The notes under the pieces were generated by a model that worked only from the letters and a program-made list of their open reading frames with translations, was not told the origin of the DNA and did no database searches. Made by a program: the position numbers and the translations under genes. Positions 5,981-13,081 of a DNA stretch of 13,722 nt are shown here, one piece after another. Positions within the stretch are counted from its first letter, which is position 1. Each line of letters opens with the position of its first letter. Location: positions 1-13,722 of the IMG/VR virus record IMGVR_UViG_2778261570_000018. The stretch is one strand, 5' to 3'. This DNA is from a virus (Duplodnaviria > Heunggongvirae > Uroviricota > Caudoviricetes).

Positions 5981-6074
5981 AAGCATCCTCAAAGGTCGAT
6001 CTGTCAGGTATCGAAAGGAAGATTTTCGGGAGATTGTGATTTTGGATGAAGGAGGGGGAATTCATAAAATGCAC

Positions 6075-6103: not shown

Positions 6104-6142
6104 TATGGCATTCAGTAATCCTCACGGAGGATCAAATGGCTA

Positions 6143-6445
6143 ATGACCAAAAAAATTAACATAAAGGATTTCAGGGATGCGTGGCTTGATGATTTTTTTG
6201 AATTTTCAACACCACATAGAAAGATACCTCCTGATATTCATATGACATTGTCACGGAAGTTGGACATTATCAATGCCGCAACTACCTGTAATGATTTAAG
6301 ATCACCACCAGGTAATCGGTATGAGGAACTGTCAGGGAAGCTAAATGGCTATTCATCAGTAAGGGTGAATAAGCAATATAGGTTAATTTTTAAGTGGGTT
6401 AACGGAAAGGCCGAGGACTTGTATCTCGACCCTCACAAATACTAA
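6143..6445 (+). CDS. higB: HigB-family (RelE/ParE superfamily, 'killer protein') type II toxin
   Basis: 100 aa. Contains RSPPGNRYEELSGKLNGYSSVRVNKQYRLIFKWVNGKAEDLYLDPHKY, characteristic of HigB toxins. It is followed by a cognate HTH antitoxin (toxin-first order typical of hig loci). Confidence 0.8.
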   Translation: MTKKINIKDFRDAWLDDFFEFSTPHRKIPPDIHMTLSRKLDIINAATTCNDLRSPPGNRYEELSGKLNGYSSVRVNKQYRLIFKWVNGKAEDLYLDPHKY

Positions 6446-6452
6446 AACAGAT

Positions 6453-6471
6453 ACCCGGTTACGAACCGGGT
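6453..6471 (+). promoter_or_regulatory. Intercistronic hairpin between higB-1 and higA-1
   Basis: ACCCGGT (6453-6459) / loop TACGA / ACCGGGT (6465-6471), a perfect 7-bp stem within an unusually long 70-nt toxin-antitoxin spacer. No T-run follows. Confidence 0.45.
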
Positions 6472-6515
6472 TCTGACCAGAGTCCACTTAATACGCACGC
6501 TAGTAAGGGCAAAAA

Positions 6516-6854
6516 ATGAAACAGGCAACCAGAAAACCGACGACCGTAGGTGATATCCTGCTGTACGAATACCTGGAGCCGTTAGAGCTGAAGATCAACG
6601 AGTTAGCAGAAATACTTCATGTTCATCGTAACACCGTAAGTGCTCTTGTTAATAATAATCGTAAGCTAACGATGGATATGGCATATCGCCTGGCAAAAGC
6701 ATTCGATACTTCTGTAGATTTTTGGATTAATCTTCAGACCGCAGTAGATCTGTGGGAAGTCGAAAATGATATGCGCGTTCAGGAAGAGTTAAGTCGTATC
6801 AATACTGCTGAAAAATTTATTTCTCAGCGGAACCTGAATAAAAAAGCAGCCTGA
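6516..6854 (+). CDS. higA: HigA-family (VapI/XRE HTH) antitoxin
   Basis: 112 aa. TVGDILLYEYLEPLELKINELAEILHVHRNTVSALVNNNRKLTMDMAYRLAKAFDTSVDFWINLQTAVDLW is the classic HigA/VapI HTH pattern. AAGGG SD lies 6 nt upstream. Confidence 0.85.
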   Translation: MKQATRKPTTVGDILLYEYLEPLELKINELAEILHVHRNTVSALVNNNRKLTMDMAYRLAKAFDTSVDFWINLQTAVDLWEVENDMRVQEELSRINTAEKFISQRNLNKKAA

Positions 6855-6873
6855 TATAGTAAAACACATACAA

Positions 6874-6905
6874 AAAGCCCACTTAGCAAGTGGGCTTTCC
6901 TTTGT
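6874..6905. terminator. Intrinsic terminator after higBA-1 (bidirectional shape)
   Basis: AAAGCCCACT (6874-6883) / loop TAGCA / AGTGGGCTTT (6889-6898), followed by CCTTTG. The A-run upstream supplies a U-run for the opposite strand. Confidence 0.75.
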
Positions 6906-6910
6906 AATTA

Positions 6911-7270
6911 ATGAACATTAAACCCATCCGTACAGAACAAGATTATGAGGCCGCACTGCGTGCGGTCGAACCGATGTTCGATAACGAACCGGAAATGAAT
7001 ACTCCGGAAGGTGATTTCTTTGAGGTTATGAGTCTTCTCATTGAGGAGTACGAGAAAAAACATTACCCAATTGAGCCACCATCACCTATTGAGGCCATTA
7101 AATTCCGTATGGAACAGCAAGGGCTGACCGTGAAGGATCTGGAACCGGCAATTGGTAAGTCAAACCGTGTTTACGAAGTGCTTAATGGGACACGAAATTT
7201 GACGTTACCTATGATTCGTCGTTTACATGCCCAGTTTGGTATTCCACTGGAAAGCCTGGTTGGCGTTTGA
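6911..7270 (+). CDS. Orphan HigA(YgjM)/COG5499-type HTH antitoxin-like regulator
   Basis: 119 aa. The N-terminal domain is MNIKPIRTEQDYEAALRAVEPMFDNEPEMNTPEGDFFEVMSLLIEEYEKKHYPI. The C-terminal HTH is IEAIKFRMEQQGLTVKDLEPAIGKSNRVYEVLNGTRNLTLPMIRRLHAQFGIPLESLV. This is the same architecture as E. coli HigA (YgjM) as I recall it. No partner toxin of the matching family is adjacent. Confidence 0.75.
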   Translation: MNIKPIRTEQDYEAALRAVEPMFDNEPEMNTPEGDFFEVMSLLIEEYEKKHYPIEPPSPIEAIKFRMEQQGLTVKDLEPAIGKSNRVYEVLNGTRNLTLPMIRRLHAQFGIPLESLVGV

Positions 7271-9664: not shown

Positions 9665-9726
9665 AACAAAGCCCCTCAGTCATAACCTGGGGGAAACTGT
9701 ATGTAGGGTGTGAAATGCGAGAAAGC

Positions 9727-9750
9727 AGCGTCACCGGGCCTGGTGACGCT
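9727..9750 (-). terminator. Hairpin/terminator after higBA-2
   Basis: AGCGTCACC (9727-9735) / loop GGGCCT / GGTGACGCT (9742-9750), a 9-bp stem. On the minus strand it is followed by GCTTTCTCGCATTTC (moderately U-rich). Confidence 0.5.
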
Positions 9751-9756
9751 GTGAAG

Positions 9757-10038
9757 TTATGCGTGGAAAAATAATGGACGGATGTTTGGGCGAGCGGTTT
9801 GCGAAGCAACCCAAAGCTCATACTGAGATTGCATACCGGTCCACATTTCGGCACTGGTTCCAAGAGCGGACTCCAGACGAAGTGCCATATCAGCAGAAAT
9901 GCCTGCTTTTTCGTTCAGAATTCGGGAAAGTGCCGTGCGAGTAATGCCTAATGCAGCAGCGGCGTCTGTGACTGACATGTCTCCCAAATATTCACGAAGA
10001 ACCGCGCCAGGATGCGCGGGATTATGCATACGACTCAT
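9757..10038 (-). CDS. higA: HigA-family (VapI/XRE HTH) antitoxin, second copy
   Basis: [76 protein letters not shown] is the canonical HigA/VapI pattern. ATG 10038 has an AGGA SD 5 nt upstream. The track start at 10050 is a TTG overlapping the toxin stop. Confidence 0.85.
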
Positions 10039-10046
10039 AGTGTTCC

Positions 10047-10328
10047 TCAATGATAATCCTGATAGTCAACTAGAATTGCGTCTTCTCCTTCAAATCGGAA
10101 GGTAAGTCGCCAGTTACCGTTTACCGATATTGCCCAGTGACCTTTAAGGTCCGCCCCCTTTAGAGGGTGCAATTCCCATCCAGGCGCAGACATATCGTCC
10201 GGGCGTTTAGCTGTATTAAGAGCAGTCAATTGAATGCGTAGCTTAACCGCATGTTTGGCCTGAATGCCTGCGGTTGAACCTGTCTTGAAAAAGCGTTCAA
10301 GCCCTTTATGGCGAAATGACTTAATCAA
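10047..10328 (-). CDS. higB: HigB-family type II toxin, second copy
   Basis: (L/M)[39 protein letters not shown]...[40 protein letters not shown] matches the HigB 'killer protein' pattern, which normally begins MIKSF. I therefore place the start at TTG 10328 (GGATGGA upstream) rather than at the track start 10391, which lies in the promoter. Confidence 0.8.
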
Positions 10329-10354
10329 AATAATTCCATCCGTGCGCGTAACCT

Positions 10355-10391
10355 GTGTATATACACTACACGCAGAGGGAGCGAAATGCAA
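10355..10391 (-). promoter_or_regulatory. Candidate higBA-2 promoter with perfect 12-bp palindromic operator
   Basis: Minus strand: TTGCAT (10391-10386), 17-nt spacer, TAGTGT (10368-10363). The perfect palindrome GTGTATATACAC (10355-10366) overlaps the -10 hexamer. Confidence 0.5.
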
Positions 10392-10529
10392 GCACTATCC
10401 GTATAGACAGAGTTTCTTCGCCGCCCTGGAATTTATTGACTGTCAACAAGTGACTTTCATTAATCTTAAGGCATGGACCAGCTCGATAGTGAGCTGGGTG
10501 TTATTTACCGATCGAATGGATTCGAAAAG

Positions 10530-10664
10530 ATGAATATTTTTAATAAGCTGATTGATTTATTGAATAAATTCATTAGTGCTTCTTTAACTCAGCAGGTATC
10601 CACGTCAGTGTTTTTGTTACTCTTCTACCTGGTATTGAGGGAGTTAACAAAGCTACTAATGTGA
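10530..10664 (+). CDS. Possible small hydrophobic peptide (44 aa; 63 aa if started at 10473)
   Basis: MNIFNKLIDLLNKFISASLTQQVSTSVFLLLFYLVLRELTKLLM has a C-terminal hydrophobic helix. The DNA is AT-rich, the SD is weak, and the stop abuts the stop of the convergent 217-aa gene. It could be a chance ORF. Confidence 0.2.
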   Translation: MNIFNKLIDLLNKFISASLTQQVSTSVFLLLFYLVLRELTKLLM

Positions 10665-11318
10665 TCAAAGTATCACGGTATCTTCATCAACTTCTTTCCC
10701 AGCCAGTGACTTTGGCTGGGAACTGCCTGCTTTAACTTTTTCATGCCCAATAATGGAAAGGAACGAAGTGAGTATGCCTGTTTTTTGCTCTTTCTCGACT
10801 GTACCGGTCATCTGCTCTACGTAATCCGCACTGGCAACGTTGTGGTATACGGTCGCGTAGCAACACAGGATCATCAGAATATGCTCCGGCCTGATATCCT
10901 GCCAGTTCACCCTGTAGACTTCTTCTCCGTTACCGTTGTATTCGGTATCAACGATAGAGTCGGGGATTTCGAAAGCACCTTTGTTATTTTGCGGCAGGGA
11001 TAATAGCTTCTGGAGTTTTAACTCTCTGTATCTTTCCATCCCGACGATGATTGCTGCTCTGCCATCGGCATGACGGGTCTTGAGAGTCACCTGGCTTGCT
11101 CCGGTGCCAGCGGAGATCGTTGGCGTAATTTCGTCTACCAGTACCTTAAATTTGCTTTTCCGCAGGGCTGCTATAGCTGGAGGAATTTTTTGCTTTTGCT
11201 CCAATGCTGACGCGGGAAGGGGTTTTACTTCGTTAATAATGAGAGCACCGTCTTTCAGTATTGCAGTGAGCATTTGAGGCTTGCTGGTGGTCAGGCTGAA
11301 TATTGCGATCTTTTCCAT
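10665..11318 (-). CDS. Hypothetical phage-associated protein (217 aa)
   Basis: Start set at ATG 11318 (MEKIAIFSL...), with GGAGAAAGGA immediately upstream. The track start at 11360 lies inside the upstream terminator. I recognise no motifs. Confidence 0.6.
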   Translation of the reverse strand: MEKIAIFSLTTSKPQMLTAILKDGALIINEVKPLPASALEQKQKIPPAIAALRKSKFKVLVDEITPTISAGTGASQVTLKTRHADGRAAIIVGMERYRELKLQKLLSLPQNNKGAFEIPDSIVDTEYNGNGEEVYRVNWQDIRPEHILMILCCYATVYHNVASADYVEQMTGTVEKEQKTGILTSFLSIIGHEKVKAGSSQPKSLAGKEVDEDTVIL

Positions 11319-11344
11319 TGTCCTTTCTCCACGGATGACGGATA

Positions 11345-11370
11345 CAAAAAAAGGCCGCACATGGCGGCCT
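11345..11370 (-). terminator. Intrinsic terminator reading on the minus strand, directly upstream of the 217-aa gene
   Basis: GGCCGC (11353-11358) / loop ACATG / GCGGCC (11364-11369). On the minus strand it is followed by seven U (A-run 11346-11352 on plus). Confidence 0.7.
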
Positions 11371-11392
11371 GCTTTGGCGTTATGACTCCCTA

Positions 11393-11450
11393 CCGCGCTT
11401 CGGCTGAAAGTTAATCGTCAAAAGAACCTTCAACGGGAGCCGTTAGCGCG
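11393..11450. repeat. Imperfect long-range inverted repeat (13-nt arms, 32-nt spacer)
   Basis: CCGCGCTTCGGCT (11393-11405) against AGCCGTTAGCGCG (11438-11450). The CGCGCT/AGCGCG and CGGCT/AGCCG blocks pair, with a 2-nt internal mismatch. Confidence 0.5.
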
Positions 11451-11586
11451 ATGGATTATGTGCAGTTTGTGATTTCCAAAATAGTGTCAACTACTTTTTG
11501 TGGATTTTATTTTTTGTCCGAAATTTGGCCTAAATCATGTTGATTTGGCTGATTATTTTTATAACATAAAACTTCATTTTGTTTAC

Positions 11587-12216
11587 ATGAAGGACGGTGT
11601 AGTGAAGTTAAGGGTTTTAGGGACCGCGCTCGCGGCTATGTTGGGATGCGTATCTGTTAATACTGCCAATGCAACTGCGTTACCTGCAAAGTATTGGGCT
11701 GGTGTGAAAGTGTTGCGGAACGCTGAAAAAGGCAATACAGCTGATGATATTTTCAAGTTTTGCCAAAAAGAAAATATCCCTCTGCACCCGGTTGAGCCGT
11801 ACTTTACAGGAAAGAATGATTTCTGTGTGTTTGCGTATACCGCAGACCAAACAGATAAGGCTATACGCAAGACAGGGTATTCTACTCAAGACACTATGGC
11901 GTCCTTAAGTAAAAACTGGTTGCAGTTTGAGGTTTACCGTAGTGAAGGAATGGGAGAGCTATTGCAGCCACTGTATATGCTGGCGTTAGTTCCGGAAGGG
12001 CAGCAGTTCCTTATTCGAAAAGGAATGCTTCGGAAAAGCGATGTAACCGGATTCAATAACACGATGGAGCTTGAACGCTCAATGAAGCAAAAGCAAGCGC
12101 CTAAGCAGCCAACAGCCGAATGTATTAGCAGCGAGATACAAAAGGCATTAAGCGAGCAGCCTTACATTGATCGTGGTGTGGCGGAAATGGCTGCCAAAAT
12201 GAAGTGTTCCAATTAA
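11587..12216 (+). CDS. Secreted protein or lipoprotein of unknown function (about 209 aa)
   Basis: Signal peptide (M)KLRVLGTALAAMLGCVSVNTANA, with a possible lipobox MLGC or SPase I site ANA-T. Start is ATG 11587 or GTG 11602 (AAGGA 7 nt upstream). The track start GTG 11500 adds an implausible AT-rich leader. Confidence 0.6.
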   Translation: MKDGVVKLRVLGTALAAMLGCVSVNTANATALPAKYWAGVKVLRNAEKGNTADDIFKFCQKENIPLHPVEPYFTGKNDFCVFAYTADQTDKAIRKTGYSTQDTMASLSKNWLQFEVYRSEGMGELLQPLYMLALVPEGQQFLIRKGMLRKSDVTGFNNTMELERSMKQKQAPKQPTAECISSEIQKALSEQPYIDRGVAEMAAKMKCSN

Positions 12217-12259
12217 CGTCAAATAGAATAACAAGATAGTAAATTTTGGAGTTAATGAA

Positions 12260-13081
12260 ATGTTCTTTATGAAAAATGGAAAAAGATTTTCCGCAACAAT
12301 GCTTGCTACTATTGTCGCTCTTTTCGTTCCCACATTCACCTTTGCTTATGATTTTAGCAAAATTGACTGCAATGCCCCTAAAACCAGGCAGATGTTAATC
12401 GATGATTATAATGAACTACTCAAGGACGATCAGGAAGCAATCACTGTAATTGATGCTTATAATCAGATTAATGAAATAAGCGAAAAAAGTAAGCTCCAAT
12501 GTTTAGGCACGTATGAGTTCTCAGATGGAAGTGCGCTTAGAGTTAGATATAAGTTATATTTAAATAGCCTCGGCACACCCATATATGAATTTGCTCCAGT
12601 TGAGGAATTAACGCAGGATGATGTAAGCGCATCTATTCAAAATATCCCTGCAACCACAGCGAGTAGGACTGGGGGGAATGAAGAAACGTATGCCTGCAAG
12701 GTGGCTGTAACTTACAAGGGGGAGCGTTCTAACTATATGGGGGATTCCGGAACATGGGATCGTGTGATTACTGACTATGGCACTTATTTTTCATGGGATT
12801 TACCACGCGGAAACCGAGGCAACAGCACAGGTCAGGATGCTTTTAGTGGCATGGACGAATCAAAGCCTGTATTAGAAAATCAGCTAGTGAGAAAGGAAAC
12901 TGAAAAAGATGGTAGCGTGGTTGATGAGTTTAGGACAGAAGTGAGTTATGGAGATAAACAACCGGTACATAAGTTTGTATATGCCCGTAGAATAAAACCT
13001 ACAGGAACGAGAGAATATTATGTCACTGATTTGACGGACAAGCGGGCATTTATGTTTCTGAATTGCCAGCAAGATTCGTAA
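12260..13081 (+). CDS. Secreted protein of unknown function (273 aa)
   Basis: GGAG lies 8 nt upstream of ATG 12260. Signal peptide MFFMKNGKRFSATMLATIVALFVPTFTFA-YD. I recognise no family. Confidence 0.6.
   Translation: MFFMKNGKRFSATMLATIVALFVPTFTFAYDFSKIDCNAPKTRQMLIDDYNELLKDDQEAITVIDAYNQINEISEKSKLQCLGTYEFSDGSALRVRYKLYLNSLGTPIYEFAPVEELTQDDVSASIQNIPATTASRTGGNEETYACKVAVTYKGERSNYMGDSGTWDRVITDYGTYFSWDLPRGNRGNSTGQDAFSGMDESKPVLENQLVRKETEKDGSVVDEFRTEVSYGDKQPVHKFVYARRIKPTGTREYYVTDLTDKRAFMFLNCQQDS

Follow-up and report, generated by a model that had tools for sequence, protein, structure and literature searches.

The mat locus

The 13,722-nt stretch of viral DNA analysed here (the window) is, judged by its sequence, part of a D6-like, P1-related phage-plasmid. 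Around the element described below, 1.7 kb is 99.8% identical to the E. coli plasmid pF719-4, and phage D6 matches 0.5 kb at 97% identity. Phage-plasmids of the D6 type, relatives of the model phage P1, occur commonly in E. coli, Salmonella, Shigella and Enterobacter. The element occupies a divergent intergenic region of ~270 bp preceding mat (10665..11318, minus strand; ATG at 11318, stop at 10665), whose Shine-Dalgarno (SD) sequence GGAG lies at 11330-11327. The 217-aa product has 33% identity to P1 Mat and is annotated as a maturation control protein; structure prediction and comparison indicate a fold resembling the nuclease domain of large terminases. On the upstream side, the nearest gene is simB-like (phrog_12786) and lies on the plus strand, divergent from mat, in agreement with the remark of the initial annotation that the terminator found here has no minus-strand gene to serve. 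All features listed in that annotation were recovered at their minus-strand coordinates when the sequence was rechecked.

Genes 26 and 25, downstream of mat, have their own late box. A search with the P1 C1-operator consensus ATTGCTCTAATAAATTT, allowing up to three mismatches, returned no site in the window or in D6; a P1-type Omat is thus not detectable.

A D6-type late promoter upstream of mat

The hexamer CATAAT (11455..11460, minus strand) is the -10 of the promoter referred to here as LPmat. It lies 3 nt downstream of AATCACAAACT (11464..11474, minus strand), a D6-type late-promoter box and the presumed site of an Lpa homologue. Further upstream, a TTGACA motif (11485..11490, minus strand) is found 24 nt from the -10 and is not its -35; a sigma-70 promoter scan of positions 10500-12400 found no canonical promoter. 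The TTGACA-CATAAT spacing had been named as the weak point of the proposed promoter. The distance of 24 nt is correct, but the view of a defective sigma-70 promoter is not upheld: the spacing is harmless because CATAAT is the -10 of a D6-type late promoter, served by the box at 11474-11464. Five of six LPmat lineages (A-E) retain TTGAC(A/C) at 24-27 nt on the upstream side of the -10. In relatives the -10 itself reads CAAAAT or AATACT, the second base being always A and the sixth always T.

A search of the D6 genome found AATCACAAACT, followed after 3 nt by a -10-like hexamer, in the correct orientation and with at most one mismatch, ahead of nine late units, namely the R/S tail-fibre operon, lyz (lysozyme), prt (portal-protease), lydA, pmgB-sit, 23, 7, upfC and mat. 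The resulting D6 late-box consensus is AATCACAnACT. The window holds two further copies of the box, one before the gene 7 homologue and one, a variant, before the gene 26 homologue. Among the nine D6 late units, LPmat is the only late promoter followed by a terminator. From lineage to lineage the box varies, and it does so in parallel at LPmat and LP23, which suggests that their two RNAs are produced jointly.

In P1, an Lpa-dependent LPmat is annotated at the corresponding place. The box at LPmat and LP23 of P1 is AAGTGACTT, 4 nt from the -10, whereas the D6-type box AATCACAAACT is 3 nt from it. Lpa homologues are encoded by D6 (orf4) and by an Enterobacter relative plasmid. By its architecture and placement, LPmat appears to be the D6 counterpart of the P1 Lpa-dependent late promoters. 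Activation of D6-type late promoters by an Lpa homologue would follow by analogy only, because the D6 late box differs from P1 AAGTGACTT.

A predicted short RNA bounded by a strong terminator

In relatives, the sequence varies from the -10 up to GCGCUAACGG and conservation resumes at the first G of the latter, which places the predicted start at ~11449 and gives an RNA of ~104 nt. This predicted mat leader or small RNA (sRNA; 11346..11449, minus strand) would begin at G 11449 and end in the U run at 11352-11346. An imperfect inverted repeat, GCGCU../..AGCGC, extends from 11449 to 11394 on the minus strand. The 3' part is an intrinsic terminator (11346..11370, minus strand) formed by AGGCCGCCAUGUGCGGCCU (11370-11352) and seven U, with a stem AGGCCGC/GCGGCCU and a loop CAUGU; the terminator scan scored it at seven pairs (six G-C) and a 5-nt loop. 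Between the U tract and the mat ATG there are just 28 nt.

Four terminator-like sites were found in 1.9 kb where 2.2 were expected, and one such site is not significant alone; the reality of the element is therefore decided by conservation. The GGCCGC/GCGGCC core is unchanged in 15 of 16 distinct homologues, the exception being a lineage whose outermost core pair, of six, is A-U. The outer terminator pairs covary. In two relatives (L030 and L035), G-C is replaced by A-U. Furthermore, a 116-nt stretch folds better than all of 200 dinucleotide shuffles (z = -3.05), and the covariance model R1 scores 130 bits on 11344-11449. Rfam 15, searched with the whole window at gathering thresholds, returned no family; at E<=10 the only matches were isrK (14.7 bits against a gathering value of 50, terminator only) and rli28 (16.6 bits against 45).

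Coding potential within the RNA comprises only three unconserved ORFs (23, 34 and 46 aa) and an overlap with a GTG-extended mat frame. A small-protein reading was rejected, given that the overlapping short ORFs are unconserved. As looked for in a base-pairing sRNA, the predicted transcript is non-coding, falls within 50-300 nt and is bounded by a promoter and a terminator. The best reading of the sequence is a discrete minus-strand RNA of ~100 nt so bounded. The initial annotation had offered either such an RNA or an attenuator controlled by antitermination; the bounded RNA is supported, and the D6 annotation gave no sign of a lambda-Q-type antiterminator.

Conservation and linkage to mat

Divergent homologues were obtained by protein-guided retrieval of the locus. 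A scan of genome contigs gave two loci, a metagenome scan gave mostly near-identical copies, and a loose-pattern scan of viral contigs gave mostly irrelevant loci among the matches listed. About 120 plasmid-collection records carry the element. The initial annotation had made its proposal depend on conservation of the hairpin and repeat in relatives, and this region is kept. The block from TTGACA to the U tract remains intact where the upstream DNA has been replaced (L008, L016, L021, H80, H81 and H82).

The covariance model finds the element once per genome and, in 35 of the 37 sources searched, directly upstream of mat. This linkage reaches lineages with only ~40-55% Mat identity and includes elements of the Raoultella, Salmonella and Enterobacter types. 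One remnant, L038, has kept the promoter, the RNA and the terminator, and mat is replaced there by an IS and tail-fibre debris. P1 lacks the element; its mat and gene 23 leaders are short and different, with no homologous RNA.

Fold and covariation of the RNA

The RNA was folded as a single sequence from the predicted +1 and, with RNAalifold, as a consensus of eight distinct close relatives, and both gave the same fold. This consists of a closing stem, hairpin 1, hairpin 2 and the terminator. In the closing stem, the 5' end pairs with UAACGC and GGCUCCC (11435..11441, minus strand) pairs with GGGAGUC (11384..11390, minus strand). The latter helix (b) has 98% of cells paired and two compensatory pairs among nine sequences, and double changes in five of its seven pairs among 16 distinct sequences. 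Pairing of GGCUCCC with GGGAG, suspected from the single sequence, has thus turned out to be the best-supported helix of the RNA. Hairpin 1 (11406..11431, minus strand; RNAalifold consensus) has a stem GAAGGUU/AACUUUC and a 12-nt loop, CUUUUGACGAUU, with a high unpaired probability in folding; its stem pair 26-39 changes from U-A to A-U in eight of 16 sequences. Hairpin 2 (GCCG-AAGCG-CGGU; 11392..11404, minus strand) is 84% paired, with double changes in two pairs.

The folding and covariation check proposed in the initial annotation thus supports the fold: across 16 distinct homologues, pairing extends to 90.3% of cells, and double changes occur in 19 of the 35 pairs, counts that are inflated towards the structure by the fitting of the structural alignment (A7) to the model. 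None of 500 shuffles attained these values, and slid controls gave 2-8 double-change pairs. At the 5' end, helix a (GCGCU/AGCGC) and helix e (with UAACGC) are alternatives with one or two supporting changes each. For the inverted repeat GCGCU/AGCGC, which may be an alternative or pseudoknotted partner, a single compensatory change (U-A to A-U) was seen.

No antiterminator fold competing with the terminator was seen in the minimum-energy, centroid or consensus folds, no upstream complement to AGGCCGC was found, and the terminator hairpin is independent in all folds. Inspection likewise found no pairing with the mat ribosome-binding site.

The capsid mRNA as a candidate target

The most conserved part of the RNA is the seed UGAAGGUUCUUUUGACG (11416..11432, minus strand), made up of the 5' arm and loop of hairpin 1. 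This is a 17-nt exact complement of D6 54102-54118, a site that directly follows the gene 23 late promoter. Gene 23, the major capsid gene, is encoded ~18 kb from the element and outside the window. The 17-nt complement is also present in pF719-4. In the gene 23 upstream regions of relatives, the segment from the -10 to GUCAAAAG is variable and conservation begins at the G of GUCAAAAG, the predicted +1, which makes the complement of the seed the extreme 5' end of the capsid mRNA.

A genome-wide RNAduplex scan of D6 gave no discrimination, with long gapped duplexes dominating, and was replaced by exact-complement statistics and a comparison of late leaders. A 17-nt complement anywhere in D6 was reached by one in 1000 dinucleotide shuffles of the RNA. 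Among the nine D6 late leaders, a contiguous duplex with the sRNA is formed by gene 23 only, at -26.9 kcal/mol compared with -10 to -18 kcal/mol for the seven other non-self leaders.

The regions upstream of mat and of gene 23 were then paired from the same contigs in six lineages, which are few and related. Lineage A, that of D6 and the window, served as the reference, with seed GGUUCUUUUGACG and capsid mRNA 5' end CGUCAAAAGAACC. Compared with it, lineage B (seed GGGUACUUUUGAC; capsid mRNA 5' end GUCAAAAGUAACC) has one A-U pair changed to U-A, and lineage C (GGAAUUUUUGAC; GUCAAAAGUUCC) has two. A U-A pair has become C-G in both lineage D (GAGGUUUUUUGGCG; CGCCAAAAAACCUC) and lineage E (GGGUACUUUUGGCG; UGCCAAAAGUAUU), accompanied by G-C to A-U in D and by A-U to U-A in E. 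Lineage F (AGCUUUUUCGACG; CGUCGAAAAGCU) carries a compensating insertion. Mean duplex energy is -20.9 kcal/mol for cognate and -12.8 kcal/mol for non-cognate combinations, and the cognate assignment is the best of the 720 permutations of the six lineage representatives. One sRNA position covaries with both its hairpin 1 partner and the mRNA. Transition differences between the two sites always give G·U and never A·C (at least nine position/lineage cases), which favours RNA pairing over a shared DNA site. An accessible conserved seed and compensatory evolution of the target, as looked for in a base-pairing sRNA, are both present. The RNA is therefore assigned, from these comparisons, a putative co-evolving trans target in the 5' end of the capsid mRNA, which was absent from the initial annotation. 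A blastn search of phage records with the D6 gene 23 leader returned only D6 matches.

Structure of the capsid leader

In nine of ten lineage representatives, the gene 23 leader begins, in its minimum-energy fold, with 12 unpaired nt, and the stem that comes next holds the GUG start codon in paired form; the weak SD of gene 23 is masked by an inner GCCC/GGGC hairpin. The start-codon stem shows compensatory changes (UUCACG/CGUGAA to CUCGCA/UGUGAG). The stretch complementary to the sRNA spans the tail and, in lineages A-C, extends 3-4 nt into the 5' arm of this ~6-pair stem; in lineage D it takes in about 1 nt of the arm.

In anti-antisense activation (DsrA/RprA/ArcZ-rpoS, RNAIII-hla, GlmZ-glmS) and in synthetic toehold switches, the start codon and SD are sequestered in a stem, and the regulator is complementary to unpaired RNA lying 5' of that stem and to some of the stem's 5' arm. 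The gene 23 leader resembles these systems in its stem-sequestered start and in the position of the regulator's complement 5' of the stem. It differs from them in that pairing occurs at the extreme 5' end of the mRNA and invades 3-4 pairs in lineages A-C and ~1 in D. In B. subtilis, the sRNA RoxS pairs with the extreme 5' end of the yflS mRNA and protects it from 5'-end-dependent decay. The duplex predicted here likewise includes the first nucleotides of the mRNA, although RoxS-yflS is a precedent for the stabilisation variant only and belongs to another organism with another set of RNases.

Activation or 5'-end protection is favoured because the leader has the layout of an anti-antisense activator or toehold switch, and the direction of the effect is probably activation, going by the modelled structures. 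Opening of the stem is not compelled, because the D6 co-fold retains the start-codon stem and pairs only the 12-nt tail, and the lineage D duplex merely abuts the stem. Stabilisation, or repression by coaxial stacking, would fit the models equally well.

Proposed mechanism and alternative explanations

The reading preferred here, to which we assign a probability of roughly 70%, is that of a late unit with two products, in which a trans-acting late sRNA pairs with the capsid mRNA and mat is attenuated. During lytic growth, the D6-type late promoter, presumably activated by an Lpa homologue, would start transcription at ~11449. Most transcripts would end at the terminator at 11370-11346, releasing the ~104-nt RNA, and a minority would read through to give mat mRNA, with the terminase-nuclease-like Mat being kept low. 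Transcription of mat by read-through is expected because 28 nt leave no room for a promoter of its own, and the element would in consequence also act as an attenuator. Constitutive partial read-through into mat is the simplest reading, because no competing fold was found and D6 has no annotated Q-like gene; factor-dependent antitermination is a less simple possibility. The hairpin 1 loop and 5' arm of the released RNA would pair with the 12-17 unpaired nt that open the gene 23 late mRNA, which is made from a second late promoter ~18 kb away. With the 12-nt tail as a toehold, the sRNA would unzip the stem from its base, breaking 3-4 of the ~6 pairs in lineages A-C, and capsid translation would be switched on or boosted, or the 5' end would be protected from decay. 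Sequence comparison can be regarded as having established what kind of promoter this is, how the RNA folds, that the element is linked to mat and that its complementarity to the second RNA has co-evolved. Where the transcript begins and ends, how efficient the terminator is, whether the effect is positive or negative, and whether Hfq or RNases take part are inferences.

A more specific version is put forward tentatively, as a possibility that we hold to be somewhat doubtful. The element and its target may form a natural toehold switch on the capsid gene, in which the sRNA, itself the terminated leader of mat, would pair with the 12-nt tail, unlock the start-codon hairpin and act as an RNA-based feed-forward timer or stoichiometry control of head protein to DNA-maturation nuclease. 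Such a switch, lacking in P1 but conserved and co-evolving in a broad group of Enterobacterales phage-plasmids, is an equally tentative proposal.

The two-product unit has to be weighed against a purely cis-acting one, an attenuator or antitermination unit of the lambda PR'-6S RNA-tR' type or a put-like RNA, in which the short RNA is a by-product. The linkage of the element to mat in 35 of 37 sources, and the fact that mat can be transcribed only through the terminator given the 28 nt from U tract to ATG, are what such a unit would show, and antiterminators yet to be found are suspected in P1 (PMC10695390). However, the D6 annotation contains no Q- or N-like gene, inspection of the folds gave no structure competing with the terminator, and P1 expresses mat without such a leader. 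A cis unit, in the put-like form as well, would also leave the joint evolution of the hairpin 1 loop and the start of an unlinked mRNA unexplained, and it does not account for L038, in which promoter, RNA and terminator persist without mat; we consider it unlikely. Regulation in the reverse direction, in which the abundant 5' end of the capsid mRNA titrates the mat leader or alters mat read-through or translation and so couples nuclease supply to capsid, would draw on the same symmetrical complementarity and the same conserved linkage to mat. Coupling to capsid synthesis would be sensible for a protein resembling a packaging nuclease. By inspection, though, sequestering hairpin 1 frees nothing for the terminator or the mat ribosome-binding site, and the terminator is an independent stem ~45 nt downstream of the seed, which leaves this direction improbable.

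The shared 17 bp could instead be a DNA site for a lineage-specific binding protein, placed in opposite orientation past both late promoters and involving no RNA pairing. Identical double-stranded DNA at two loci that change together would mimic complementarity of transcripts, and both sites lie within about +1 to +37 of their late promoters. A DNA site would nevertheless show A·C as well as G·U combinations at transition differences, of which only G·U occurs. In the sRNA the sequence forms a hairpin loop and arm, with the opposite arm covarying (pair 26-39), and in the capsid leader it is exactly the unpaired 5' tail. The insertion in lineage F leaves a bulge of a kind that RNA duplexes tolerate. 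A protein-binding site is on this evidence improbable, and base pairing of the sRNA with the capsid mRNA remains the preferred explanation.

If this is true, the main structural gene of a phage would be regulated by a late sRNA of that same phage, acting at the very first nucleotides of the mRNA, and two unlinked loci have visibly co-evolved. The pairing would offer a testable handle on capsid expression and a reason for the odd terminator before mat. As a by-product of the analysis, the terminase-nuclease-like predicted fold suggests a function for the long-enigmatic Mat of P1.

Comparison with known systems

To our knowledge, the targets of known phage sRNAs are mostly immunity genes or host mRNAs. 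A 2025 review of phage-derived sRNAs describes none that acts on a capsid gene and none from phage-plasmids (PMC12197685). A full-text literature search by seed sequence and by phage sRNA and capsid terms, beyond whose reach lay the D6 and P1 genome papers, found no description of the element.

Among late promoters, that of P1 mat is the closest counterpart. It stands in the same place before mat and likewise has a box a few nt upstream of the -10 and no canonically spaced -35. The D6-type promoters share with the P1 type a box near the -10, its repetition before late operons and an Lpa gene, but do not have the box AAGTGACTT. P1 also differs in having 19 nt from the -10 to the mat start codon, without a structured leader or terminator.

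The initial annotation had likened the arrangement to lambda PR'-tR'. The likeness is architectural only, given that the D6 annotation provides no evidence of a Q-type antiterminator and the promoter has a D6 late box. As in a lambda-type unit, a short terminated RNA would be made immediately before a late gene, here 28 nt before the mat ATG, but no Q-family antiterminator gene is present in the D6 annotation. The antiterminator overlapping the 5' arm of the terminator that defines a riboswitch or classical attenuator was likewise absent from the predicted folds. As whole arrangements, the late-promoter/terminator RNAs of lambdoid phages (6S RNA, StxS) come nearest to the element, ahead of the leader-derived antisense RNAs of P1 and P4 and, in third place, anti-antisense activators such as DsrA. 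StxS is a trans-acting, base-pairing RNA that activates rpoS (PMC12197685). StxS and lambda 6S RNA share with the element a late promoter, a strong terminator within ~100 nt and a position directly upstream of late gene(s), and in both the terminated leader is itself a stable RNA, as is predicted here. Their PR' promoters are constitutive, however, and read-through requires Q, whereas the present promoter has an activator-type late box and D6 has no annotated Q; neither sequence nor Rfam links them to the element. The mRNAs on which StxS acts are those of host and toxin, in lysogens, whereas the present RNA is predicted to act late, on the phage's own capsid mRNA.

The c4 RNA of P1 and P7 and the CI RNA of P4 (Rfam C4/isrK) are, like the element, small structured RNAs of P1-type phage-plasmids, derived from the leader of the operon that follows them, with loops complementary to mRNA. 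The target of c4, in contrast, is the operon to which it belongs (icd-ant); its role is in immunity control, and RNase P excises it. The element is not a member of the C4/isrK family, the isrK match noted above being confined to the terminator and far below the gathering threshold. By sequence or by defining features the element stands outside all of the families compared, and its predicted mode of action is that of a leader-derived, trans-acting base-pairing sRNA.

Late-promoter boxes and junctions downstream of mat

D6-type late boxes, in which an 11-nt box is followed by 3 nt and a -10 hexamer, are also found on the minus strand of the window before two other genes. The gene 7 tail homologue is preceded by one of them (AATCACAATCT-ccc-GAAAAT, at position 6041), and the gene 26 baseplate homologue by a variant (ATTTCACACCCT-aca-TACAGT, at 9716-9696). 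Given this second box, genes 26 and 25 are therefore independent of read-through from LPmat, the predicted late promoter of mat. Just 5' of the gene 26 box is a terminator-like hairpin on the same strand (GCGUCACC-AGGCCC-GGUGACGC, then UGCUUUC; 9725-9750), which is probably the end point of the toxin-antitoxin/mat transcripts.

Two toxin-antitoxin modules of the RelE/ParE-HigA type are inserted amid the tail and baseplate genes of the window (~9757-10391, minus strand, and ~6140-7270, plus strand), with one positioned between mat and gene 26. The insert at this junction is different or absent in D6 and in the Enterobacter relative, so the junction is a variable cargo spot.

Variation around mat in related elements

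In Enterobacter hormaechei p60214CZ_1 (locus L187, 41950-42010), there is a late box at the stop codon of mat; transcription from it is predicted to begin within the 5' arm of a terminator hairpin (AGGCCGCATTCTGCGGTCTTTTT). This hairpin could stop transcripts of mat, yet be missing from those begun at the mat-stop late promoter. In a Raoultella-type element (L219, 1133-1200), ~70 nt separate mat from the terminator of the sRNA, the short RNA predicted directly upstream of it, and this gap contains a possible second late-type box (TTTCACACTT); mat may have gained its own promoter in this lineage. The sRNA is also kept, along with a promoter-like region and the terminator, in a degraded prophage remnant on a 319-kb contig of Enterobacteriaceae bacterium RIT691 (L038, 1550-2010), where mat has given way to a fragment of an IS3 transposase together with tail-fibre debris.

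The TTGAC(A/C) motif upstream of LPmat

A TTGAC(A/C) motif is present upstream of the LPmat -10 in the window (11485-11490) and at the equivalent position in loci L244-L278. Its distance from the -10 is too great for a canonical -35. The motif is kept 24-27 nt 5' of the -10 in five of the six lineages compared (A-E, lineage A being that of D6 and the window); in the Enterobacter/L030 type the spacing to the -10 is 18 nt, and in P1 it is 19 nt.
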